A DNA stretch of 64,000 bases from Phycisphaerales bacterium (GCA_020852275.1 JADZBE010000026.1:192338-256337); one strand, 5' to 3'. Positions 17,258 to 61,419 are shown, counted from the stretch's first letter. The notes: generated by a model from the letters alone, not told the origin. Numbers and translations are program-made.

Positions 17258-17712
17258 CGAGAGGCTCCTTCGTGTCGGGACCCCGGGACTGAAGCACGCG
17301 CGGGTATTGTGGACACGCCCCACGGGGGATGCAAGACGTTTCTCCGGGAGGATCAGAACCCACGCCGAGGGCATCTCGAACAGCGACTGGCGATTGCGGC
17401 AGCGGATCAGGGCGGCATGGAGCCGACGGTTTGGGCCTCAGCGCCGTCGCGGCGTGACGGCGGCGTGCGAAGCCGTCCGCATCGATGCCGGGCCATTGCT
17501 CGTGGGCGAGCGGGTGTGGTAAAATGCGCAGCGTCGTTCGGGACGACTCGGCCGCCTGCTCAGCGACTTTCCGCGTGGGACGGGAAACAACGAGGCGAAG
17601 CGCGCGGTTCCCGTCCGGCTGCATGGGCGGCGGAGGCGCTTTCCCAAGGATTCACTCGCCCGATGCCCGCGGCGGCGCCTGGCCGGCGGAACGGGCTTTG
17701 GCGCGGGGAGTG

Positions 17713-18342
17713 ATGACGATGCGGACGTCATTGCCCGAGCTGGATTTAATCAACCTCGCCACGCGCGGGGACGGTGACGCTTTGTCCGCCCTCCTGGAGC
17801 TGCACGGACCCACCGCGCGACGCGGGCTGGAGATTCCCCGGCGATTCCAGTCTCTCGTCAGCGTGGACGACGTGATGCAGCAGACGTACACCGACGCCTT
17901 CCTGCGCATTCGTGAGTTCGTGCCGCGCGAGGACGGATCGTTCGCGGGCTGGCTGGGTCGCATGGCCAGGCGCAACCTCGTCGATGTGATCCGCATGTTG
18001 ACGGCGGAGAAGCGCGGGGGCGACCGGCAGCGGCTGCACGTGGAGACGTTCGGCAGCTCCCTGCACCGGCTCTCGGTGGTGCTGGGCGTGACGGAGGCGA
18101 CGGCGAGCCACGGCGCGCGAATGGAGGAGGCGTGCGCGGCGCTGGGAGAGGCGATCACGGCGCTGCCGCCGTTGTACCGCCGCGTGATCGAGAGATTCGA
18201 TCTGCAGGATCGTCCGGTCGAGGAACTCGCGGACGAGCTGAAGCGGACGACCGGCGCGGTGTACATGATCCGCAGCCGCGCGCACCGCCTGATCCGCGAG
18301 CGCATGGGGCGGTTGGAAGATTACGTCAGCGACGGAGCCTGA
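17713..18342 (+). CDS. ECF-type RNA polymerase sigma factor
   Basis: Start at ATG 17713 (MTMRTS...). Region 2-like DDVMQQTYTDAFLRIREF...FAGWLGRMARRNLVDVIR. Region 4 LPPLYRRVIERFDLQDRPVEELADELKRTTGAVYMIRSRAHRLIRERM. Confidence 0.8.
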   Translation: MTMRTSLPELDLINLATRGDGDALSALLELHGPTARRGLEIPRRFQSLVSVDDVMQQTYTDAFLRIREFVPREDGSFAGWLGRMARRNLVDVIRMLTAEKRGGDRQRLHVETFGSSLHRLSVVLGVTEATASHGARMEEACAALGEAITALPPLYRRVIERFDLQDRPVEELADELKRTTGAVYMIRSRAHRLIRERMGRLEDYVSDGA

Positions 18343-18346
18343 CGCC

Positions 18347-21229
18347 GTGTCCAGCGAGAACCCACAACCGGCGACCCAGTCGGACGAGCGCCGACTCATT
18401 GAGGCCGCCCGCAGCGACGCCGAGGCTGCGGCCGCGGGTGGAGACTCGGCGGTCATGCTCCCCTCCGGCGGCATCCCTGGTTATGAGATCCTGCATGAGA
18501 TCCACCGGGGCGGTCAGGGCGTGGTCTATCGCGCGCACCAGAAGAGCGCCGGGCGCACCGTGGCGATCAAGGTGATGCGCGAAGGTCCGTTCGCCGGGCC
18601 TTTGGATCGGGCGCGCTTCGACCGCGAAGTGCGCATCCTCGGCGCGCTGCGGCACCCGAACATCGTCGCCATCCACGACAGCGGGCAGTCCAGCGGTCAT
18701 TTCTACTACGTGATGGACTACATCGCCGGGCAATCGCTCGACGCCCACGTGGCGGAGCGCAAGCCGGACCTGGCGGCGGCGCTGAAGCTCTTCCTGAAGA
18801 TCTGCGACGCGGTGAACGCGGCCCACCTGCGCGGCATCGTGCACCGCGACCTCAAGCCGGGCAACGTCCGCGTGGACGCCGCAGGCGAGCCGTTCATTCT
18901 CGACTTCGGTCTGGCGCGCGGCGCGGGAGCGTGGGCGCAGTCCGTGCCTCAGCCGGTGACCGTGACGGGACAGTTCATCGGCTCGCTGCAGTGGGCCAGC
19001 CCCGAGCAGACGGAAGGCATCCCCGATCGCGTGGACATGCGCACGGACGTGTATTCGCTGGGCATGATTCTCTTCCACATGCTGACGGGCAAGTTCCCGT
19101 ACGACGTGGCGAGCGAGATGTGGGTCGTCGTGGACCAGATCCGCCGCGCGGAGCCGGTGCGCCCGCGCACGTTGCGGCGCGAGATCGACGACGATCTGGA
19201 GACGATCCTGCTCAAATGCCTGCGGAAGGACCGCGAGCGGCGCTACCAGACGTCGGGCGAGCTGGCGAAGGACCTGCGGCATTACCTCGCCGGCGAGGCG
19301 ATCGAAGCCAAGCGCGACAGCTCGTGGTACGTGCTGCGGAAAACGCTCCAGCGGCACCGCGCGGCGGTGACCAGCGCGGCGCTCGTCGCGGTCGGTTTGG
19401 TAGTGTTCTCGATCGTGACGTTCGCGATGTATCGCACGGCGGAGGCGGAGCGCGCGCGGGCGCAGACCGAAGCAATGAAATCGCGCCAGACCGTTGACCT
19501 TCTGACCGGGGTGTTCGCGTTCATCGAACCGGAGAAAGCCAAGGCACGCGACACGAGCCTGCTGCGAGAAGCCCTTGATCACGCGGCGTCCCGCATCGAG
19601 GTCCAGCTTGGAGGCCATCCGGAACTGGCGGCGGAGCTTCACCTGTACGTGGGTGAACTGTACATGCGGCTGGGCTACTACGATGCCGCCGCCGAGCGCG
19701 GGCGCCGCGCGGAGGCGCTGGTCGAGCCGGAACGAGGGCGCGCTACGTCCGAATCGGTGCGGATCGTCAGATTTCTGATCCTGTGCGAATGGAAAGGAAA
19801 GTCGCCCTCCGAAGCCCTCGGACCGAGGCTGGAGGAAGTCCTGGCGCTGCGCCGCAGCTTCGCTCCCGACGGCAGCCTGGAGGTGACGGAGAGCCTCTAT
19901 GACCTCGGTCGGTTCAACTACGAGCGCGCCAACTACCCGCAAGCGCTGGGGCTGTTTCAGCAGGCGCTGGACCTGCTCGACGGGCTTCCAGCCCCCGCGA
20001 TCGAAAAGAAAGCCGAGGTTCTTCTTGATGCCGCCCGTACCGCCATCATGCAAAACGACCACGCCCGCGCCGAGTCGTTTTTCAGGCAGCTCGATGCGCT
20101 GCTGGATGATCGGGACACCAAACCCAGCCTGATCCTCGCTGAAGTCCTCAGTACGCGGGCGCTGCAGATCTGGCGCGGAGGGAAGGAGAGCCTCGATCAC
20201 GTCGCGCCGATGTTGACGCGGGCGCTTCGGATGCAGGAGCAACTGCTTCCCGAGCCGGACCATCCGACCATCGCCAGAACCAAGGACATACTGGGGCTGT
20301 ACCTTTTCGAGAAGGAATACGCCGTGCGAGGCAAGGAGGGGCTGCGGTACCTTGAAGAGGCCTACCGAATCCGCACCGCCAGGCTGCAGCACGACAGCGA
20401 TGAGCTTGCGGACAGCTTGCACCATTACGCTTCGGCGTTGATCGACGAAGAGCGCGTCGATGAGGCGGAACCGCTGCTGAGCCGGGCCATCGAGATCCGC
20501 GCGAAGTTGTTCGGCGCTGAATCACCGCAGGTTGCGGACCTGATGCGCTTGAAAGCGGAGGCGAGGGTCAAGGACCGGAAGCTCGACGAAGGTTTGAAGA
20601 TTCTGGGTGAGGCTCTTGCCCACCTGCGCTCCGGCGCCCAGCCGGATCGTGAAGTGGAACTCCGCTGCCTCCACGACATCGGCGCGCTTCAAATCAAGGC
20701 CAAGGAGTGGGATCTCGCCGCCGACTCGCTTCAAGAGGGCCTGAACCTCCGCCGCGCAATGTCCGGCGGGGGGCCCAGCGATGACTTGGCGGAATTCCTC
20801 CGCATGCTCGCCCAGGCGCGACGCGAACAGAAGCGTTTCGATGAGGCCATCGAATTGCTCAACGAGTGCATCAGCGTCTCCCGGCAGGTGTACGGCGCCG
20901 GCCATGAGGACGTTCCCGTCATACTGAATACGATGGCGAGAACCCTGATCCAAGCGCGCCGCGCCGCCGAGGCGGAGAAGTACGTTCGTGAGGCGGTGGC
21001 GCTGTGCGACGCGGGCACGCCGTGTCAACCGGGCAAGGCTTGGGAATTCCAGCTTACTTTGGGGGAATGCATCTTCCGGCAGAACCGGCTCGACGAGGCC
21101 GAGCCGATCTTGACGCGGGCGTTGGACGGTCTGAAGGCTCATCAGGCGTCCGAAGGAGCAATCTCGTATGCTCAGAAGATTATCGGGGACTTGAAATCCG
21201 CTCGCGAGTCGGCCCAAGGCGGGTCGTGA
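18347..21229 (+). CDS. Ser/Thr protein kinase with one TM segment and a long TPR-like C-terminal domain
   Basis: GTG start 4 nt after the sigma-factor stop. Kinase motifs: GGQGVVYRA, VAIKVM, HRDLKPGNV, DFGLAR, SPEQ. TM segment AAVTSAALVAVGLVVFSIVTFAMY. About 560 aa of TPR-like helical repeats follow. Confidence 0.85.
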   Translation: MSSENPQPATQSDERRLIEAARSDAEAAAAGGDSAVMLPSGGIPGYEILHEIHRGGQGVVYRAHQKSAGRTVAIKVMREGPFAGPLDRARFDREVRILGALRHPNIVAIHDSGQSSGHFYYVMDYIAGQSLDAHVAERKPDLAAALKLFLKICDAVNAAHLRGIVHRDLKPGNVRVDAAGEPFILDFGLARGAGAWAQSVPQPVTVTGQFIGSLQWASPEQTEGIPDRVDMRTDVYSLGMILFHMLTGKFPYDVASEMWVVVDQIRRAEPVRPRTLRREIDDDLETILLKCLRKDRERRYQTSGELAKDLRHYLAGEAIEAKRDSSWYVLRKTLQRHRAAVTSAALVAVGLVVFSIVTFAMYRTAEAERARAQTEAMKSRQTVDLLTGVFAFIEPEKAKARDTSLLREALDHAASRIEVQLGGHPELAAELHLYVGELYMRLGYYDAAAERGRRAEALVEPERGRATSESVRIVRFLILCEWKGKSPSEALGPRLEEVLALRRSFAPDGSLEVTESLYDLGRFNYERANYPQALGLFQQALDLLDGLPAPAIEKKAEVLLDAARTAIMQNDHARAESFFRQLDALLDDRDTKPSLILAEVLSTRALQIWRGGKESLDHVAPMLTRALRMQEQLLPEPDHPTIARTKDILGLYLFEKEYAVRGKEGLRYLEEAYRIRTARLQHDSDELADSLHHYASALIDEERVDEAEPLLSRAIEIRAKLFGAESPQVADLMRLKAEARVKDRKLDEGLKILGEALAHLRSGAQPDREVELRCLHDIGALQIKAKEWDLAADSLQEGLNLRRAMSGGGPSDDLAEFLRMLAQARREQKRFDEAIELLNECISVSRQVYGAGHEDVPVILNTMARTLIQARRAAEAEKYVREAVALCDAGTPCQPGKAWEFQLTLGECIFRQNRLDEAEPILTRALDGLKAHQASEGAISYAQKIIGDLKSARESAQGGS

Positions 21230-22480: not shown

Positions 22481-23809
22481 ATGCGATTTCGACAACTGAC
22501 TGCGATGGGTGCGGCTCGCTCTGCGCCGATGACGCTGCAGGATTGGCGCACGGACTCACTCGGCGTGCTGATCCTGATGGCGCTTGTGCTGCTGGGCGTG
22601 ATCGGGTGCGGAGGGTCGGGGGCGCCGGGCGGTCCCTCCACGCTTGAACCCTTCTCCCAACTGGACCTCACGACTTCCGATCAGGAAGAAACGGGGGACA
22701 ACGAGAACTTCGCGCAGGCCGAGACGCTGCCCCTTCGCCTCGACGAGGACTACACGGTCAGCGGCACGATCGACTCCGCCGCGGACGTGGACATCTACGA
22801 TCTCGGCGCGGTGCGCAGCGGGGACCGCGTTCTGGCGGAAGTCTTCGCCGATGATTCGCTGGATGGCGCGATCGCCTTGTTCAACGGCGCGGGCGAGAGC
22901 CTGCTCGTCAACGACAGCCAGAACGTGTACCGCGGCAGGCTCGGACCGTATGTGGACCTCGTGCTCAAGCACGACGGCGAACACGCCTATCTCGTCGTGG
23001 CCTCCACCTCGGGCAGCGACACGACCGGCGCCTACACGCTGGCGGTGCGAATGACCGAGGGCGAGTCGATCCCCTCGCCGGCGCCGCAGGAGGTGCTCCT
23101 CAATTTCGCCGGCGCGACCGGCATCGGTTTCGGCGGACGGCCCGATGTGAACATCCCCGCCTTCGACGCCGCGGACATCTCCAGCGAGTTCGAGGGCAAG
23201 ACGGGCGACATGGTGGCGCGCATCGTCGAGTTCGTCCGCGAGGATTACGCCGGGCTTGAGGTCGAGGTCCTCTCCACGTCCGAGGGCGCCACCGACGACG
23301 GCGAGGTGACGCGCATCCACTTCGGCACCTACGACCCCGGGTTGCTCGGCGTGGCCGAAGGCGTGGACGAATACAACTCGAGCACGCGGCAGGACGCCAT
23401 CGTCTTCACCGACACGTTCGCCGCCTTCAACACCCTCAGTCCGACGGTGGAAGAGATGGCGCTGGCCGTCGCCAACGTCGCCAGCCACGAGATCGGCCAT
23501 CTGCTGGGTCTCGTGCACACGTCGGATTCGACCGACATCATGGACATCACCGCGAGCCTGTCGCAGTTGATGACCGACCAGGCGTTCGAGACAGCGCCGC
23601 TGCATTCGACGGTGTTTCCCGTCGGGATGCAGGACTCGGCGGCCTACCTGGTGGACTCCGTGGGCGGCGACGCGGAGTCGTTCAAGCGGGTCAAGCAGTT
23701 GGCGGTTCGACGGCGCGCCTTGAACACCCATCCGCGCGAGGTGGACCTCCCGCGCGACGGGCTGCAATTCGGATCGTGCGGGTCGATTCATGCCTCCAAA
23801 GCGCGCTGA
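22481..23809 (+). CDS. lipoprotein with PPC (pre-peptidase C-terminal-like) domain and matrixin-like (M10) metzincin domain
   Basis: Lipobox LLGVIGCGG. PPC-like GTIDSAADVDIYDLGAVRSGDRVLAEV...AYLVVASTSGSDTTGAYTLAV. Zinc site HEIGHLLGLVHTSDSTDIMD (HExxHxxGxxH). Confidence 0.75.
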   Translation: MRFRQLTAMGAARSAPMTLQDWRTDSLGVLILMALVLLGVIGCGGSGAPGGPSTLEPFSQLDLTTSDQEETGDNENFAQAETLPLRLDEDYTVSGTIDSAADVDIYDLGAVRSGDRVLAEVFADDSLDGAIALFNGAGESLLVNDSQNVYRGRLGPYVDLVLKHDGEHAYLVVASTSGSDTTGAYTLAVRMTEGESIPSPAPQEVLLNFAGATGIGFGGRPDVNIPAFDAADISSEFEGKTGDMVARIVEFVREDYAGLEVEVLSTSEGATDDGEVTRIHFGTYDPGLLGVAEGVDEYNSSTRQDAIVFTDTFAAFNTLSPTVEEMALAVANVASHEIGHLLGLVHTSDSTDIMDITASLSQLMTDQAFETAPLHSTVFPVGMQDSAAYLVDSVGGDAESFKRVKQLAVRRRALNTHPREVDLPRDGLQFGSCGSIHASKAR

Positions 23810-24137: not shown

Positions 24138-24352
24138 AAGCGAACCCCTCCCGGCCGCTTGTGGCTGCGGTTGCGTGCTGCCCCACAGCCTTGATGTGGC
24201 AGGGATGCGCTTCCGCGCATTGACCGGTCTCTTTGCCTCTCCCTACCATTGCCGATATCAGCGGGACCGGCTGCGCGGCCGGAAAACGGCGCGCGGGGTT
24301 ATTCCTGCGCAGGACGGGCACGAACGGCATTCGGCAGGGAGGACACGACTCG

Positions 24353-25585
24353 ATGACACGGCTTCTGGCGCGGGCGGCGGAGTGCGAACGAACGGGCGCC
24401 ACGAAGGCCATCGGCGCCGCATCGTCGAGTACGACACGCCGACGCAGGATCGTTCTCACCGCGTGCGGCCTTGTCACGCTGCTTCCCCTCGTTGCATGTG
24501 TCCCTCCCACGGAGAGCGCCCCCGTCGGCGACGTGGAGGACGGCAATCGAGGCGAGATCCCGGCGGACACGACGGGAAAGACGCAGGGCGAACCCAACGG
24601 CAGCTTCGATGCCTCGATCCTCGCCGTAATCGACGACGCCGGCGAAGCCGCGCTGGAGGGAACCATCACCAGCGGCGCGGATGTTGACGTTTTCAACCTG
24701 GGCGCGATCGATCCGGGAGATCAGATTCTCATCAGCGCCGACACGCCCGGCTCCTCGCTGGACATTGCCATCAGCCTGTTCGACGACGAGGGGCGCCTCA
24801 TCTTCTACAACGACGACAAGAGCGGCTCGGACTTCGACGCGGAGATCGATCACATCGCGCGACACGCCGGGACGGACTGTTATCTGCTGGTCGAGGCGTC
24901 GTCCTTCCACAGCGCCGGCGCCGGCAGCGGAACCTATCAGGTGGACGTGAGCCTGTGGCGCGGCGGCGACGTTCCCGAGCCGGTGGCTCAGACACTGTTT
25001 CTGGATTTTAACGGCGGCGCGGTGGACTCGCCCACGCTGGGGCGCGTGACGATCTCGCCCTTCGACGCGGCTGAAATCAACGCCGACTACGAAGGGGAGA
25101 CGGAATCGCTCAAGGAACTGATCCGCGTCGAGATCGAGGCGAACTTCGCGGCGTTCGATGTGCAGGTGGTGACCTCGGACGCCTTCACGCCCGGCCCAGC
25201 GGACAAGCAGTCCACCCTGTTTTTCGGCGGGTATCAGGCGGACATCTTCGGCGAGGCCGAGGACGTGGACCTCTACAACCTCAACTGCTGCGACGACGCG
25301 ATCATCTATACGCAGTCGTTCGACCCGGACGTGGTGTTCTTCAGGCCGCCCACGACGGCGCAGATGGGGCGCGCCATCGGCAACGTGGCGTCGCACGAGG
25401 CGGGGCACCTTCTGGGACTCAATCACACCAACGACGACACGGACCTGATGGACGAGCAGTCCGCGGCGCAGGCGCTGACCCGCGATCAGGAGTTCATCGA
25501 AGCGCCGCTCTCGACGCAGATCGCGCCGATCGGCACGCAGGACTCGGCGCTGCTCCTGCTGGAGACCCTGGGTCCGGCCACCTGA
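24353..25585 (+). CDS. PPC + matrixin-like metzincin lipoprotein, paralogue of 22481-23809
   Basis: Start at ATG 24353 (MTRLLARAAE...). Lipobox-like LLPLVACVPP. PPC-like GTITSGADVDVFNLGAIDPGDQILISA...CYLLVEASSFHSAGAGSGTYQVDV. Zinc site HEAGHLLGLNHTNDDTDLMD. Colinear with its paralogue. Confidence 0.75.
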   Translation: MTRLLARAAECERTGATKAIGAASSSTTRRRRIVLTACGLVTLLPLVACVPPTESAPVGDVEDGNRGEIPADTTGKTQGEPNGSFDASILAVIDDAGEAALEGTITSGADVDVFNLGAIDPGDQILISADTPGSSLDIAISLFDDEGRLIFYNDDKSGSDFDAEIDHIARHAGTDCYLLVEASSFHSAGAGSGTYQVDVSLWRGGDVPEPVAQTLFLDFNGGAVDSPTLGRVTISPFDAAEINADYEGETESLKELIRVEIEANFAAFDVQVVTSDAFTPGPADKQSTLFFGGYQADIFGEAEDVDLYNLNCCDDAIIYTQSFDPDVVFFRPPTTAQMGRAIGNVASHEAGHLLGLNHTNDDTDLMDEQSAAQALTRDQEFIEAPLSTQIAPIGTQDSALLLLETLGPAT

Positions 25586-52939: not shown

Positions 52940-53884
52940 CTACTCGAAGTCCCCCGTCTCGCTGAGGATGTCGTCCAGCTCCGCGTCGGAGAGCACCTGC
53001 CCACGCTCGCCGTCGAACAGCTCGCGCTCGTCTTCGATCAGCCCGTCCTCGTCGCGGGGCGACTGGCGCAGGATCGTGCGGGCGAGTTCGAGCTTCTCCA
53101 TCACCGCCGACATGTCCGGCAGGCGGCGGTCCATGGAGGTATGACAGCAGCTCTCGATGAACCGGGCGACGCAGACGGGCATGCCGGAAAGCTCCATTTG
53201 CGGCAGAGCCTGCACGCGCTTGCCGAGAAGCCGCTGGCTGTGCGGGCTGACCGTCTGGTTCATTTCCGTGGGCACGGGCTTGCCCGTCAGGATGCGGTGC
53301 AGCGTCGCGCCGAGACCGAACACGTCGGTCCGCTGATCGAGGGTGGACTGCGTGGCCTGCTCGGGCGCCATGTAGTCGATCGTGCCCTGCACGCGCGGCT
53401 TGGCTTCGCCGAGGCGCGAGCTTTGACCGAAGTCGATGAGCTTCACCTCGCGATCCGGCGTCACCAGGATGTTGCCGGGTTTGAGGTCGGCATGAACCCA
53501 GCCCGCGCGGTGCATGGCCGTCAGCCCCTCCGCGGTGCGCGCGAAGACCGTCAGCAGCTCATCCAGCGGCAAGGTGAAGTTCCGGTCGGAGAGGGGCGCG
53601 CCCGGCACGTACTCCATGAACAGCAGCGCGCCGTTCACGCGCGTCAGCCGGCGCAGCGGACGGAACTCAAACGTCTTGCGGATGACCGGATGGTCAATGG
53701 CCGAGCCGACCGTGTGTTCATCCCGCATCAGCTCGATGATCTTCATGTCCTCCGGCTGGCGGACCTTGACGACCTTGATGGCGTAATCGCCGCCGGTGCG
53801 CATGCAGCGGGCGCGGTACACCGTCGTGGCGGCGCCCGTGCCGATCTTCTCGATCACCCGATAATTAGGCAGCTCCAACGTCAT
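52940..53884 (-). CDS. Ser/Thr protein kinase, stand-alone catalytic domain with acidic tail
   Basis: GTGAATTVYRA, YAIKVV, HADLKPGNILV, DFGQSS, TIDYMAPEQ. 314 aa, with no TM or sensor domain. Confidence 0.85.
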   Translation of the reverse strand: MTLELPNYRVIEKIGTGAATTVYRARCMRTGGDYAIKVVKVRQPEDMKIIELMRDEHTVGSAIDHPVIRKTFEFRPLRRLTRVNGALLFMEYVPGAPLSDRNFTLPLDELLTVFARTAEGLTAMHRAGWVHADLKPGNILVTPDREVKLIDFGQSSRLGEAKPRVQGTIDYMAPEQATQSTLDQRTDVFGLGATLHRILTGKPVPTEMNQTVSPHSQRLLGKRVQALPQMELSGMPVCVARFIESCCHTSMDRRLPDMSAVMEKLELARTILRQSPRDEDGLIEDERELFDGERGQVLSDAELDDILSETGDFE

Positions 53885-54692: not shown

Positions 54693-55814
54693 ATGTCCGT
54701 CTCTTTCTCCACATTCGACCGTCTGAAATCCAAGGGCGTCGCCGCCTTTCAGCAGGGGGATTTCGTCACCGCGCGGGGGTACCTCGTGGACGCGGCCGAG
54801 TGCATGATCGAACTGGCCGAGCAGGCGAAGACCGAGGACGCGCGCCGTCAGCATGAGGAGATCGCCGCGGAGCTGGTCCAGCTTGCCAAGGATTGCGACA
54901 CCCGCCGCGGCAGCCCGCAGGCCGCCCCGCGCATCCGTCAAGGCGAAAAGGACGACGAGGCCGGCGCCGACGCCTCCGACTGGATCGTGCGCGAAAAGCC
55001 GGACGTGGGCTTCGACGACATCGCCGGGCTGGAGGACGTCAAGACCGAAATTCGGCTCAAGATGATCTACCCGTTCGCGCATCCGGCGCTGGCCAAGCAG
55101 TACGGCATCAGCGTCGGCGGCGGCGTGCTGCTCTACGGTCCGCCCGGAACGGGCAAGACGATGATCGCCCGCGCCATCGCCCACGAGATCGACGCCACGT
55201 TCTACCTCATCAGCCCGGCGCAGATCATGAGCAAGTGGGTCGGCGAGGCCGAGCAGAATATCCGCAAGCTGTTCGATTCCGCCAAGGCGGACCGCACGTC
55301 GGTGATCTTCATGGACGAGGTCGAGGCGCTGGTGCCGCGGCGCAAGAGCGACTCCTCGACGGTCATGCAGCGCGTAGTCCCGCAGATTCTGCAGGAACTG
55401 GAGGGCTTCGACCGCAACGGTCAACGCGCCCTATTATTTGTCGGGGCGACGAACAAGCCGTGGCTCATCGACGAGGCCATGCTCCGCCCGGGGCGTCTGG
55501 ACGCGAAAGTGTACGTCGGGCTGCCGGATGCTCCGGCGCGGTTCAAGATGTTGGAGATCTATCTGGGCAAGAAGCCGCTGGCGGGCGACGTGGACTTCGG
55601 CGAATTGTGCGACCGCTTGGAGGGTTACAGTGGTGCTGACATCCGAAATATCGTGCAGCAGGCAGCACAAATCCCTTTCATGGAAGCCATCGGCGGTGGG
55701 GAAGCCAGACCGATCACCCGCGCGGACATGCTGAGAGTGCTGGAGGACACGAAACCGTCGGTGCAGCCCTCAGACCTGACGCGGTTTGAGAAGTTCGCGC
55801 AGACGGGATCGTAG
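54693..55814 (+). CDS. AAA ATPase with N-terminal MIT-like helical module (Vps4/spastin-like architecture)
   Basis: N-terminus FDRLKSKGVAAFQQGDFVTARGYLVDAAECMIELAEQAKTEDARRQHEEIAAELVQLAKDC. Walker A GPPGTGKT, Walker B VIFMDEVE, SRH GATNKPWLIDEAMLRPGRLD. Single AAA cassette. Confidence 0.8.
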   Translation: MSVSFSTFDRLKSKGVAAFQQGDFVTARGYLVDAAECMIELAEQAKTEDARRQHEEIAAELVQLAKDCDTRRGSPQAAPRIRQGEKDDEAGADASDWIVREKPDVGFDDIAGLEDVKTEIRLKMIYPFAHPALAKQYGISVGGGVLLYGPPGTGKTMIARAIAHEIDATFYLISPAQIMSKWVGEAEQNIRKLFDSAKADRTSVIFMDEVEALVPRRKSDSSTVMQRVVPQILQELEGFDRNGQRALLFVGATNKPWLIDEAMLRPGRLDAKVYVGLPDAPARFKMLEIYLGKKPLAGDVDFGELCDRLEGYSGADIRNIVQQAAQIPFMEAIGGGEARPITRADMLRVLEDTKPSVQPSDLTRFEKFAQTGS

Positions 55815-55848
55815 TCGCCCGTCGGGAAGTCGATGCCGGGTTAAGATT

Positions 55849-56013
55849 GGGGCACCGGCTTTCCAGCCGGTGAGTTCTGGGACAGGTTTCCAACCGGGGG
55901 CCTGCAGCGCAGGTTTCCAACCTGTGGTCTGAAGCACAGGGTTTCAAACTGGTACGGTGTGGCACCGGTTTCCAACCGGTGGCCTGTAGCACAGGTTTCC
56001 AACCTGTGCATGA
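55849..56013 (+). repeat. tandem array of six ~27-nt hairpin units (family R3)
   Basis: Hairpin cores in order: caccggc-tttcca-gccggtg, an imperfect acaggtttccaaccggg, acaggtt-tcc-aacctgt, a degenerate cagggtttcaaactgg, caccggtttccaaccggtg, and acaggtt-tcc-aacctgt. The units are contiguous with no spacers. Confidence 0.85.
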
Positions 56014-57879
56014 ATGGAGAACATGCGAGCGCGCTCCGGCAAGCCTGTGGCCTTCTCGACCCATCTCGGTCCGGCGGGCGGACCGATAAAGGATCCCATT
56101 GCGCTGCTGTCCGGTGCCGGCGAGACGCTCGCGCTTCGCGTCGCCGCCTCGGCACTTTTCACCACGTTTCGCCGCACCTTCCAACTGCCGCCGGACGTCA
56201 TGGCCTTGGTGACGCGAGTCGGCGACGATCACGAGACCGTGCGTCCCGGTGGTCAAGTGGATGGCCGCGACGCGGTCGAAGTCCTTTTCGTGCGCGCCGC
56301 TCCACTGCCGCTGACGCTTCGCGCCGGGCGCTTCGTCAGCGCCGATGCATACCCCGCCGAGGTCGAGATCAGCTTGAGCGCTCGGGCGATCCCGGATCGC
56401 GGCGACCTGCTGTCGCTGAAGCGGCGGCTGGGAGAGGCGGCGCAGTCCATCTCGTGTGCGCAGCTCGCGGAGGCGTTTCTGCCCGGGGTGCGCGCCGCCA
56501 TCGAACCGGTGTTCACCAAGGCTAGCATGACCCAGGTCATGACGACGGACGTCTGCATCGAGATGGAGAAAGCGATCGGCGCCGCCTTGGAATCCGTGGC
56601 GTTCTCCTGTGGTCTGTCGATCGACGCCGGCATCCGCGTGCGCGCCGCCTCGGAAACCTACGAGCGCGTTCGCCGCGCCGCCGAAGACGCCGAGCAGAGT
56701 CGCCGCCAGGTGGAAGCGGCCGCGCCGTTGCGCGCCGCGCAGCAGGACGCCCGCAGGCAGCAGGTTCAACATTTTAGCGAACTCCTGGCAGAGATGAGGG
56801 CCGCGACGGGCGCGGAGAACGCGCCGCCGCTGCGCGACTTTCTCCGCACGTTTGCCGAGCACGAGCGCGCCCAGCTCTACGAATCCCTCTTCGCCGAAAA
56901 AGCGCGGACCGCCGCGACCCGTGCCATCCTCGTGGCCGCGGGCCCTGAGCTGCTCGTCTTTGATCCGCCGGCCGCGCCGCTCCCCTCGCAGCGGTTTTCC
57001 CTTGCAGGCGGGGCCGGCGCTCCGCGGTCCGTGCACATCCCGCCGTCAGGTGGCAACGAGCTGCGGGCGTGGATCGGCGCGTCGAGCGGCGTGTACGAAG
57101 TCCGGTTGACGGACGGCGTGATTGAGGCGAGCTACGGGTTGAAGTCCAGTCCGTCGGTGCGCGGCGGCTTCAACAGCGTCGCCGTCTCCGACACGGCGAT
57201 CTACGCCTCTCACTCGGAGTTGGGCATCCGCCGGTGGAGACGCGACGAGCCGGACGCCGCCGATGCCGTCATGCTTGCCGCGGTGACGCAAGGAGCGCAG
57301 GCCATCCGGGCGATTCAGCTTGTGGTCGGATCTCTGTACTGCGCCGTTGATGACCGCGTGATCCGCTGGTCGAGCGAGGCCGCATCCGTTTCGCGTGACT
57401 CGGTTTCGCCAGTGCGTGAGTATCTCGGCGCCGGCGCGCAGATCACGGCGCTGCTTGCGGAGCGCGACGAAGTGCTTGCGGGCACGGCCGACGGGCGCGT
57501 GCTCCACTGGCGCGTTGATTCGCCGCACGAACCGCGGTTGCTGCACACGGGTCGTGGGCGTCCCGTTGAGTCGCTCGCGGTCATCGAGCATGAAGGGGTG
57601 CGACGCCTGTTCATCGCGGACACATCCGTTTGCGTTCACGCGCGGCTGCTCGACGACGCGACGCGCTGGAGCTACGAGGCCGGGGGGCAGACGCTGCGCC
57701 GGGCGGCCGTTGCGGCGGACCTCATCGTGGCCGTGACCGACCTCCGCGACCGGCTCGTTCTCTTCGACCCCGGCGTGCCCGACCGTCCGCAGGCGGTGCA
57801 TCACATCGCCCAACTCACGGGCCACAGCGTTCAGGACGTCGCACTCGTCGCGCAGCAGGGGCGGCCAAGCATGAGGTAG
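56014..57879 (+). CDS. hypothetical protein: SPFH/Band-7-like N-domain (tentative) + coiled coil + beta-propeller-like repeats
   Basis: 621-aa ORF with good coding bias. ...VEISLSARAIPDRGDLLSLKRRLGEAAQSISCAQLAEAFLPGVRAAIEPVF...MEKAIGAALESVAFSCGLSIDAGIRVRAAS, then ETYERVRRAAEDAEQSRRQVEAAAPLRAAQQDARRQQVQ. C-terminal repeats carry VIRWSSE, RVLHWRVD and RLVLFDPG. ATG 56014 or 56023. Confidence 0.65.
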   Translation: MENMRARSGKPVAFSTHLGPAGGPIKDPIALLSGAGETLALRVAASALFTTFRRTFQLPPDVMALVTRVGDDHETVRPGGQVDGRDAVEVLFVRAAPLPLTLRAGRFVSADAYPAEVEISLSARAIPDRGDLLSLKRRLGEAAQSISCAQLAEAFLPGVRAAIEPVFTKASMTQVMTTDVCIEMEKAIGAALESVAFSCGLSIDAGIRVRAASETYERVRRAAEDAEQSRRQVEAAAPLRAAQQDARRQQVQHFSELLAEMRAATGAENAPPLRDFLRTFAEHERAQLYESLFAEKARTAATRAILVAAGPELLVFDPPAAPLPSQRFSLAGGAGAPRSVHIPPSGGNELRAWIGASSGVYEVRLTDGVIEASYGLKSSPSVRGGFNSVAVSDTAIYASHSELGIRRWRRDEPDAADAVMLAAVTQGAQAIRAIQLVVGSLYCAVDDRVIRWSSEAASVSRDSVSPVREYLGAGAQITALLAERDEVLAGTADGRVLHWRVDSPHEPRLLHTGRGRPVESLAVIEHEGVRRLFIADTSVCVHARLLDDATRWSYEAGGQTLRRAAVAADLIVAVTDLRDRLVLFDPGVPDRPQAVHHIAQLTGHSVQDVALVAQQGRPSMR

Positions 57880-58147
57880 CATGGCTTCACGCTTTCGGCG
57901 TGACAGGGTTTCAAGCGCGCGGCGTGGCATGGCTTCACGCGCATCCTGTAGCCATGCGAGGCGCCACCGAGGCAATCACCTGCTCACGCCGAGTACGGCG
58001 AGAGCACGCCACCCCGGATGGAGTGCATCCTGCTGAAACGCCGCATTCTCGGCGGCGTTTCCCGCCGACGCCGTCGCTGCTACAATGCCCGGCTCGACGC
58101 AAGGGACTTGCGCCGGAGTCGAAAAGGGAATCACGCGCGAACCATCT

Positions 58148-60658: not shown

Positions 60659-61419
60659 CGCCCCAGCGGGGCGCAGGCATGTAGCCACGGGTGGAGCGCA
60701 GCCCGCGTCTTCGCGGGCGAAGCGGAACCCGTGGAACGCGGGGCGTTGTCAGGAGCCCGCCCAGAGGGGCGGAGGAGGCGCCGGAAAGTCCAAGAGATCA
60801 ATCGAACACATACTTCTCGTCGAACTCGATCTCATGCAGGCGCAGCATCCGCAATAACTCCGCCTTGAAGTCCTCTTTCTTGTGGTGCTCGGCCTGCCCA
60901 GCGATGTACTTCTTGACGGCTTCTTCCTGCGACTTGCTGACAGAAAAGGCGGAGTATCCCTCCTGCCACGCGAATGCCGCGAGCGTCGGGAATGTATCAT
61001 GCAGCCACTTCGAGGACCGCGCCTTGACCGTGCGCATCAGGTCCGACACGGTCGCATCGGGCCGCCACCGCACGTACATGTGAACGTGGTCCTCGACGCC
61101 GCCGATGCCGTACAGCACGCCCTTCTCAGCCCGCACGATGCCGCCCATGTACGGATACAGACGTTCGGCGACGTCAGGCGTGATCCAGGCTTCGCGGTGC
61201 TTGGTGGAGTAGACGATGTGCAGGAGAATCTGCGAGTACGTGCCGGGCATCCGGGTCCTTTCCTTCTACGCGAAAACTCCTCCGCCCCTCCGGGGCGGCA
61301 AGAGGATAAGGGAACCCTGCTTCCACGGGTTCCGCTCCGTCCGCCGCGGCCGGGCTTTGCCCGGCGGCGCGTCGGACTCCGCTCCACCCGTGGCTACAAC
61401 CCGACGCCCCATCGGGGCG
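60659..61419 (-). mobile_element. IS200/RAYT-like unit: Y1 transposase gene bracketed by ~120-140-bp imperfect inverted repeats
   Basis: Left arm 60659-60778 and right arm 61277-61419. Shared blocks in inverted orientation: cgccccRNYggggcg, gtagccacgggtggagcg, agcggaacccgtggaa, ccSSaggggcggaggagg. Confidence 0.7.
60798..61250 (-). CDS. IS200/IS605-family Y1 (HUH) transposase, REP-associated tyrosine transposase (RAYT)-like
   Basis: MPGTYSQILLHIVYSTKHREAWI..., HUH motif DHVHMYV, SKWLHD..., FAWQEGYSAFSVSKSQEEAVKKYIAGQAEHHKKEDF. 150 aa. High G/C3, like host genes. Confidence 0.8.
   Translation of the reverse strand: MPGTYSQILLHIVYSTKHREAWITPDVAERLYPYMGGIVRAEKGVLYGIGGVEDHVHMYVRWRPDATVSDLMRTVKARSSKWLHDTFPTLAAFAWQEGYSAFSVSKSQEEAVKKYIAGQAEHHKKEDFKAELLRMLRLHEIEFDEKYVFD

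Follow-up and report, generated by a model that had tools for sequence, protein, structure and literature searches.

A gene pair for an MIT-AAA ATPase and an SPFH-propeller protein in Phycisphaerae, with ESCRT-III-like candidates among the genes of relatives

The gene pair and its products

A stretch of 64,000 nucleotides (nt) from Phycisphaerales bacterium (GCA_020852275.1, JADZBE010000026.1:192338-256337), called here the window, has a G+C content of about 65% and carries two adjacent genes on the + strand between positions 54,693 and 57,879. The first (54693-55814) encodes a 373-residue MIT-AAA ATPase of Vps4/CdvC-like architecture. The second (56014-57879) encodes a soluble protein of 621 residues, its partner, in which a divergent SPFH (Band 7) domain is predicted to be followed by a helical stretch and a seven-bladed beta-propeller. 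A preliminary description made from the DNA sequence had placed these open reading frames (ORFs) about 200 nt apart, and the ORF calls give a spacer of 199 nt. The NCBI start of the partner is the fourth codon, which yields a product of 618 residues. Here the two proteins are described together with the genes that accompany them in relatives, some of which probably belong to the ESCRT-III superfamily.

The N-terminus of the ATPase (residues 5-71; 54705-54905) is modelled as a three-helix bundle of the MIT type. The AlphaFold model of residues 1-72, based on 17 orthologues, has a mean predicted local distance difference test score (pLDDT) of 92.2 and places helices at residues 5-20, 24-44, and 48-71. 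When this model is searched with Foldseek against a library of 350,000 chains, nearly all of the top PDB fold matches prove to be MIT domains, at TM-scores (template modelling scores) of 0.74-0.86, root-mean-square deviations of 1.0-2.4 Å, and a probability of 1.0. They include NRBF2, VPS4A/B, yeast Vps4, the Vps4-like ATPase CdvC of S. solfataricus, MITD1, katanin p60, and calpain-7. The E-values of these matches (0.2-0.9) are weak because the domain is helical and only 70 residues long, and the weight lies in the dominance of MIT domains at the top of so large a library. Profiles are less responsive here: MIT is not recognised in the isolated N-terminal 95-109 residues by Pfam or NCBIfam, and the profile of this region returns weak TPR-motif matches from PDB sequences, MIT not being among them. 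The MIT-like module of the preliminary description is thus borne out by structure.

A low-complexity, variable linker (54906-54983) connects the MIT module to the AAA cassette. Among 41 aligned ATPases, this region accepts insertions of up to about 50 residues and is followed by a conserved DASDWIV motif. As had been described, there is one classical AAA cassette: Pfam finds a single AAA domain (1.6e-39), and AAA_lid_3 is matched as well. The cassette core corresponds to residues 145-276 (55125-55520) and contains the Walker A motif GPPGTGKT and the pore loop 1 sequence SKWVGE. A C-terminal helix of the Vps4_C type covers residues 339-370 (55707-55802), where the Pfam Vps4_C match reaches 29.7 bits against a cut-off of 21.3.

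The human VPS4B sequence used for comparison was validated against PDB 7l9x. Its cassette is 33% identical to that of the ATPase, SKWVGE lies opposite SKWLGE, and the C-terminal helices of the two proteins align. The C-terminus of p97 D2 aligns at the same helix, so the Vps4_C-type helix is not exclusive to Vps4. The beta-domain of Vps4 has no counterpart in the ATPase, which is gapped over about 35 residues where VPS4B has it; archaeal CdvC is not known to have the beta-domain either. The top NCBIfam model for the ATPase is archaeal CdvC (NF041006), and residues 15-369 align to positions 18-365 of its 370 positions. This end-to-end fit, which needs no large gaps, is consistent with a CdvC free of the beta-domain. 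The nearest PDB sequences to the cassette are p97/Cdc48 D2. The build of the ATPase is thus that of Vps4/CdvC: MIT comes first, a flexible linker leads to a single classic AAA cassette whose pore loop reads KWxGE, and a helix forms the C-terminal part.

The model of the partner, built from 87 homologues, has a pLDDT of 91.9 and a predicted TM-score (pTM) of 0.78. Residues 38-212 (56125-56649) form an alpha/beta domain that closes in the GLSIDAGIRVRAAS hairpin, the motif named in the preliminary description. Directly after this domain, DSSP assigns a helix of 52 residues (214-265), in agreement with the coiled coil that had been described there, and then short helices at residues 273-299 (together 56653-56910). 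The pLDDT across the helical stretch is 80-93, and a conserved ERGxLxxxLW motif is found at its end in the alignment. Residues 302-613 (56917-57852) are modelled as 28 strands in four-stranded blades, giving a WD40-type propeller of seven blades; the propeller had been foreseen, with a blade number of about six. The top 50 PDB fold matches of the partner in Foldseek are propellers of the WD40 type, including Tako8, Fbw7, and COP1 (E 3e-12 to 4e-9), and at the sequence level the partner matches the designed propeller Scone (3e-7).

The window copy of the partner is assigned to no family in Pfam, NCBIfam, or PADLOC, and among PDB sequences it finds only weak matches to designed propellers. The profile of its N-terminal region has no match among PDB sequences. 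Because the propeller masks the N-terminal domain in a fold search, the N-terminal regions of homologues were scanned with Pfam. Band_7 matches 11 of 36 such regions with a best E-value of 1.4e-7, and every other family matches at most two. The modelled topology is compatible with SPFH. The SPFH domain of the preliminary description is thus supported at the level of the family, while the window copy itself has no profile match. No transmembrane-like segment is found in the partner, where the highest 19-residue Kyte-Doolittle mean is 1.31, in line with its description as a soluble protein; a mean of at least 1.6 is reached by four of the 36 family members. In the model and the alignment, about 25 residues at the N-terminus form a disordered tail, and a short helix comes next.

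By exhaustive HMMER search, the partner family comprises 829 clusters at 50% identity; a word-index homologue search under-reports it, returning 6-7 proteins. Many cluster representatives belong to a shorter subfamily of about 500-560 residues that lacks the first 50-70 residues (e.g., P0006, L007:2730-4238). In the one context of this kind examined, L007, Na/Ca-exchanger genes lie upstream and the ATPase is absent.

The neighbourhood of the ATPase was surveyed with one genome per species, giving 77 loci with ATPase relatives, almost all in Phycisphaerae or other metagenome-assembled genomes (MAGs) of Planctomycetota. Orthologous ATPases, which are 59-95% identical and constant in length, occupy 65 of these loci, and in 59 of the 65 the sequence extends at least 2.5 kb downstream. 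In 55 of these 59 (93%), the next gene, on the same strand, is that of the partner, at a median gap of 94 nt. The pair is also present in metagenomic contigs whose flanks are otherwise unlike those of the window and where the ATPase is 75% and the partner 39% identical. No terminator-like site is predicted in the ATPase-partner spacer. The partner is the tightest-linked neighbour of the ATPase, and the adjacency of the pair is near-obligate. A chance juxtaposition of two unrelated genes, for which the 199-nt spacer is the single favourable point, is refuted by the same-strand adjacency in 55 of 59 orthologous loci, some with unrelated flanks, and its probability is negligible. Adjacency in related genomes was one of the tests by which the preliminary description proposed to judge the pairing, and the pairing has come through it.

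About six small hairpin units with the core CMSGTTTCCAACCKG take up the spacer (55852-56008, + strand; repeat family D1). Each unit is about 27 nt long and contains the small palindrome CACAGG-TTTCCAA-CCTGTG, and the last copy abuts the start codon of the partner. The CMSGTTTCCAACCKG core occurs four times in the spacer and nowhere else in the window, against an expectation of 0.02, and the RNA fold of the spacer has a z of -3.4. A relative with 95% identity (L009) carries two hairpin copies at the same place (2298-2348). The hairpins were considered as a dispersed family of repetitive extragenic palindromes, which was rejected: within the window they are confined to the spacer. They may regulate the partner gene through its translation or through the stability of its mRNA. 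At the other end of the partner gene, a 17-nt direct repeat, GTRGCATGGCTTCACGC, begins in the stop codon (57876-57892); its second copy (57924-57940) starts 48 nt on, in the spacer before lepA.

Genes upstream of the pair in relatives

Clustering of all neighbourhood ORFs reveals a conserved row of same-strand genes, in the order F, A, B, C, D, upstream of the ATPase. F encodes a protein of about 135 residues with about four transmembrane segments. A encodes a Ser/Thr kinase of about 355 residues with C-terminal zinc ribbons. B (about 487 residues), C, and D (about 202 residues each) belong to no Pfam family. Among L014-L085, examples of the row are L065:238-4875 and L071:1230-5973; another is L001:15-3533. 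Of the 46 loci whose sequence reaches at least 5 kb upstream, 31 have B, C, and D ahead of the pair. In the 43 loci where both flanks are visible, the full row appears 27 times and the pair by itself, as in the window, 12 times; two loci have D only, and two have neither.

L001, a metagenomic lineage, also has B, C, and D, and a PspC-domain gene is inserted between its C and D (L001:2649-2858). PspC is a classical partner of PspA, an ESCRT-III superfamily member. A HicB-like gene and a gene for a TMEM260-like protein with multiple transmembrane segments lie between D and the ATPase in the same lineage. The TMEM260-like membrane protein was considered as a general partner and rejected, being present in L001 and L078 only.

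By eye, D is ESCRT-III-like: it starts with MGLFKSK, its N-terminal half is basic, and its C-terminal half is acidic. The median net charges of the two halves are +11 and -13 in D, and +9 and -10 in C. The best Pfam family for D by E-value is Snf7, matched below threshold by seven of 33 members (best E 6.6e-4). For profile comparison, a Snf7 reference was assembled from eight ESCRT-III sequences, which were confirmed as members of the Snf7 family (E 2e-16 to 1e-58). In hhalign, D matches this reference with a probability of 83.7% (E 8e-6) over 132 columns in register, residues 13-154 aligning to 12-153. The C-terminal half of B (321-437) matches it at 72% (E 3e-5), and B and C match each other at 94% (E 1e-7; B 310-413 to C 13-107). 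Column-reversed controls stay at or below 0.4%, and the N-terminal SPFH region of the partner, an unrelated control, reaches 1% (E 0.051). Judged from these profiles, D and the C-terminal half of B are probably ESCRT-III-superfamily proteins, and C is possibly another through its link to B.

The C-terminus of D is nearly invariant. The motif LR[AD]ELxxLK is present in the last 40 residues of 39 of 40 D proteins, and it fits the spacing of MIM1, the motif bound by the MIT domains of Vps4. The C-terminal tail of B is rich in proline and carries the conserved motif [KR]ARPE.

Several B proteins (e.g., L071:3121-4575, at residues of about 210-255) have recurring sub-threshold Pfam matches to helix-turn-helix or winged-helix families (E 0.02-0.2), and the matched stretch sits just before the Snf7-like half. 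Such a pairing of a winged helix with an ESCRT-III-like part would be reminiscent of archaeal CdvB and ESCRT-II. The N-terminal part of B resembles a restriction-endonuclease-type fold by eye.

More distant MIT-AAA relatives, about 43% identical to the ATPase (L081:135-7270, L083:875-7129, and L084:1-5179), adjoin Ser/Thr kinases and C/D-like genes. These three relatives lack the SPFH-propeller partner, and one of them comes from a Sedimentisphaerales MAG. Among the kinases beside them, one is fused to a WD40 propeller and one carries a zinc ribbon and DUF4234. A further relative of the ATPase, 44% identical, is encoded by a longer ORF of 566 residues in a Candidatus Paceibacterota MAG (L077:5203-6903); the partner is absent there, and a xylose-isomerase-like TIM-barrel gene lies downstream.

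Other genes in the window

A stand-alone Ser/Thr kinase gene lies at 52940-53884 on the - strand. The preliminary description had listed it as transcribed divergently from the pair, and had proposed to examine whether it co-occurs with the pair in Planctomycetota. The ORF is real (Pkinase 6e-38), and it is not conserved with the pair: no kinase matching it is found within 6 kb of the other loci that lack the B-C-D cluster, and it has none of the zinc ribbons of the cluster kinase. It was rejected as a conserved member for these reasons. What is conserved is a different kinase, the zinc-ribbon protein A of the upstream cluster in relatives.

The region at 18.3-21.2 kb, which is matched by the cluster kinase, was also considered as a place for the gene row and was rejected, as it codes for an unrelated kinase-TPR protein of 960 residues and does not belong to the cluster. 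This Ser/Thr kinase (18347-21229, +) has a long C-terminal part of helical repeats. The ORF before it (17485-18342, +) resembles a sigma factor of the extracytoplasmic function type by eye.

Two paralogous ORFs of about 445 residues (22481-23809 and 24233-25585, both +) carry a zinc-protease-like motif, HExGHLLGL, near the C-terminus and a stretch at the N-terminus that is hydrophobic by eye. The DNA between and around them yields short repeated peptides in translation, suggesting repeated DNA. An ORF for a 150-residue IS200-like Y1 transposase (60798-61250, -; Pfam Y1_Tnp 6e-26) is located 3 kb downstream of the pair.

A possible ESCRT-III/Vps4-like module

On balance, we lean towards the view that the pair is the tightest-linked part of an ESCRT-III/Vps4-like module in Phycisphaerae, equipped with an SPFH-propeller scaffold. 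In such a module, B, C, and D would polymerise on the membrane. The MIT domains would recruit the ATPase hexamer to the C-terminal tails, above all to the LRAELxxLK tail of D, and the ATPase would draw subunits through its pore, so that the polymer is remodelled or dismantled. The SPFH-propeller protein could oligomerise through its SPFH and helical parts, as SPFH proteins generally do, and could serve as a membrane-proximal platform or adaptor. This role is suggested because SPFH proteins associate with PspA and with archaeal ESCRT loci. The propeller might position or regulate the ATPase, the polymer, or both, and the kinase might supply control. In the lineage of the window, the pair stands apart from the genes of the row.

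Several facts weigh against this view. The likeness to ESCRT-III is drawn from profiles compared with a small alignment of reference sequences and from Pfam matches below threshold. C matches the Snf7 reference weakly (12.9%, E 2e-3, 56 columns in hhalign), and the profiles of C and D have no match among PDB sequences. In hhalign, no similarity is detectable between C and D, which is why C is claimed to be ESCRT-III-like solely via B. Profiles of B, C, D, and F match nothing across the whole window, and the 12 of 43 loci that keep the pair without the cluster imply that the pair may act alone or with other substrates. Classical SPFH proteins have a membrane anchor, which is missing from the SPFH partner. 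As for the ATPase, its score against the CdvC equivalog NF041006 (235.5 bits) is far under the cut-off of 650, and its second region of homology is of the Cdc48 type, with LRPGRLD opposite IRRRFE of VPS4B. When the MIT module is removed, the cassette reaches 227.9 bits with CdvC and 228.2 with CDC48. The ATPase cannot be filed as a Vps4 orthologue.

Archaeal CdvC and eukaryotic Vps4 are the closest models for the ATPase. The order of MIT, linker, single AAA cassette, and C-terminal helix is the same, the length is near that of the CdvC model, and the pore loop KWxGE is shared. In relatives, as in systems of CdvC/Vps4 and ESCRT-III, the ATPase adjoins Snf7-like proteins with basic and acidic halves, one of which has a MIM1-like tail. 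Some archaeal ESCRT loci also contain an SPFH protein (Makarova 2024). The differences are as follows. The host is a bacterium, the score is under the CdvC cut-off, and the cassette is equidistant from Cdc48 D2. In comparison with eukaryotic Vps4, LRPGRLD replaces RRRFE and the beta-domain, which binds Vta1, is absent. The Snf7-like proteins of relatives are too diverged from ESCRT-III for the Pfam thresholds. Cdv systems have no counterparts of the SPFH-propeller partner, the zinc-ribbon kinase, or the protein with four transmembrane segments, and in the window, unlike in Cdv systems, the ESCRT-III-like genes are not adjacent to the ATPase.

Bacterial VPS4-like MIT-AAA ATPases, transferred to several phyla including Planctomycetes, have been reported (Ravi et al. 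2024, mSystems, Text S2.2), an example being ACB74714.1 of Opitutus. In that report, snf7 is described as displaced by a gene for TPRs and a domain with six transmembrane segments (6TM). A bacterial MIT-AAA ATPase is therefore not new in itself, such VPS4-like proteins being listed in that supplement; a 2025 review, on the other side, states that a Vps4-like ATPase seems to be absent in bacteria. Our ATPase resembles those of Ravi et al. in combining MIT with a Vps4-type AAA in bacteria, Planctomycetes included, and action near the membrane was proposed there as well. By their description, those operons differ in having the TPR+6TM neighbour and in the loss of snf7, whereas here the neighbour has an SPFH-coiled-coil-propeller composition and most relatives have Snf7-like genes.

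An SPFH component has been noted in one archaeal ESCRT system, the 'Meth_adaptin' loci (Makarova 2024), and Band-7 proteins are among the partners of PspA, their role being unknown (2025 review). B. subtilis YdjI, which occurs with PspA, and the 'Meth_adaptin' SPFH protein are similar to the partner in that a Band-7/SPFH domain with a coiled coil is encoded near genes of the ESCRT-III type. The role proposed for them is to localise or organise ESCRT-III-type proteins at the membrane. The partner in the window differs from them in being fused to a seven-bladed propeller, in lacking a membrane anchor and a zinc ribbon, and in being linked tightest to the ATPase instead of to ESCRT-III-like genes. 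The literature searched contains no account of a fixed SPFH-propeller partner, of co-located Snf7-like genes, or of conservation across Phycisphaerae. The preliminary description, which knew of no bacterial system with this pairing, is only partly right; it had missed the bacterial MIT-AAA ATPases with their TPR+6TM neighbour, as well as the Band-7 proteins already known as partners of PspA and ESCRT-III (Makarova 2024; 2025 review).

The persistence of the pair where B, C, and D are not nearby, in 12 of 43 loci including the window, makes a self-contained two-component system the main rival. There, the SPFH-propeller protein would form large assemblies and would itself be bound by MIT and remodelled or disassembled by the ATPase, close to what the preliminary description had suggested. 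No other linkage is as conserved as that of the pair (55 of 59 loci), SPFH proteins are established builders of large oligomers (Makarova 2024), and the disordered N-terminal tail and short helix of the partner could be the handle. The alignment, however, shows no conserved MIM-like motif at either end of the partner, and the near-invariant MIM1-like C-terminal helix belongs to D instead. In addition, the partner has diverged far more quickly than the ATPase (39% versus 75% identity), which does not argue for a tight enzyme-substrate interface. We regard this system as unlikely. It is reasonable to see in the pair a remodelling machine of the MIT-AAA type that is tied to a neighbour forming a scaffold. 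B, C, and D are better candidates for the substrate than the SPFH-propeller protein, because D and the C-terminal half of B appear to resemble Snf7 and D bears the MIM1-like tail.

Two further explanations are less likely, because a protease domain, a membrane anchor, and an effector are all missing and the distribution is that of vertical inheritance. The combination of an AAA ATPase with SPFH follows the established logic of FtsH-HflK/C, in which a classic-clade AAA ATPase is coupled to an SPFH scaffold. By analogy, an SPFH cage or platform could confine a general AAA unfoldase for quality control, the propeller selecting the clients, with no connection to polymers of the ESCRT-III type. The cassette, equal in its scores for Cdc48 and CdvC and closest to p97/Cdc48 D2 among PDB sequences, would fit such an unfoldase, and propellers commonly recognise substrates, as do Fbw7 and COP1, which are among the top fold matches. 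Neither protein of the pair, however, has a protease domain or a transmembrane segment, the N-terminal domain is MIT and not the N domain of Cdc48, the partner has a propeller in addition, and the conserved upstream genes are Snf7-like instead of coding for proteases or chaperones. We consider this analogy improbable. Slightly less probable still is an anti-phage or conflict system of NTPase, propeller, and kinase, in which the ATPase and the propeller would sense invasion and trigger an effector. In its favour, PADLOC has IetA models that hit the ATPase (1.4e-35) and defence models for kinases that hit the kinase next to it, kinases and WD40 proteins lie beside distant ATPases (L081, L083), and the N-terminal part of B may be nuclease-like, by eye only. 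The PADLOC matches reflect generic AAA and kinase similarity; for the IteA equivalog, the score is 110 bits where 510 are required. An effector domain was not found, and the protease neighbour expected for IetAS is absent from the ORFs and the Pfam scan of the window. Across dozens of species, the ATPase keeps its length and an identity of 59-95%, and the gene order is stable among housekeeping neighbours; these facts indicate a vertically inherited core function, not a mobile defence island.

If the ESCRT-III/Vps4-like module is accepted, its function can be speculated upon. FtsZ is missing from all Planctomycetes, and it is unknown how Phycisphaerae drive their binary fission (Rivas-Marin 2020). 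The module might be a Cdv-like, ESCRT-III-based machine for membrane constriction and scission in these FtsZ-less bacteria dividing by binary fission, a speculation that we rate as doubtful. Equally doubtful is the composition that such a machine would have, namely B, C, and D together with the ATPase, the SPFH-propeller scaffold, the kinase, and the protein with four transmembrane segments. If true, it would be the first division or scission system of the ESCRT-III/Vps4 type in bacteria. Apart from division, a class-wide module of an MIT-AAA ATPase, Snf7-like proteins, and an SPFH scaffold would revise the view of bacterial ESCRT, and would bear on the origin or spread of the ESCRT machinery. 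For Phycisphaerae themselves, the genes of the module are concrete candidates for the driver of binary fission.

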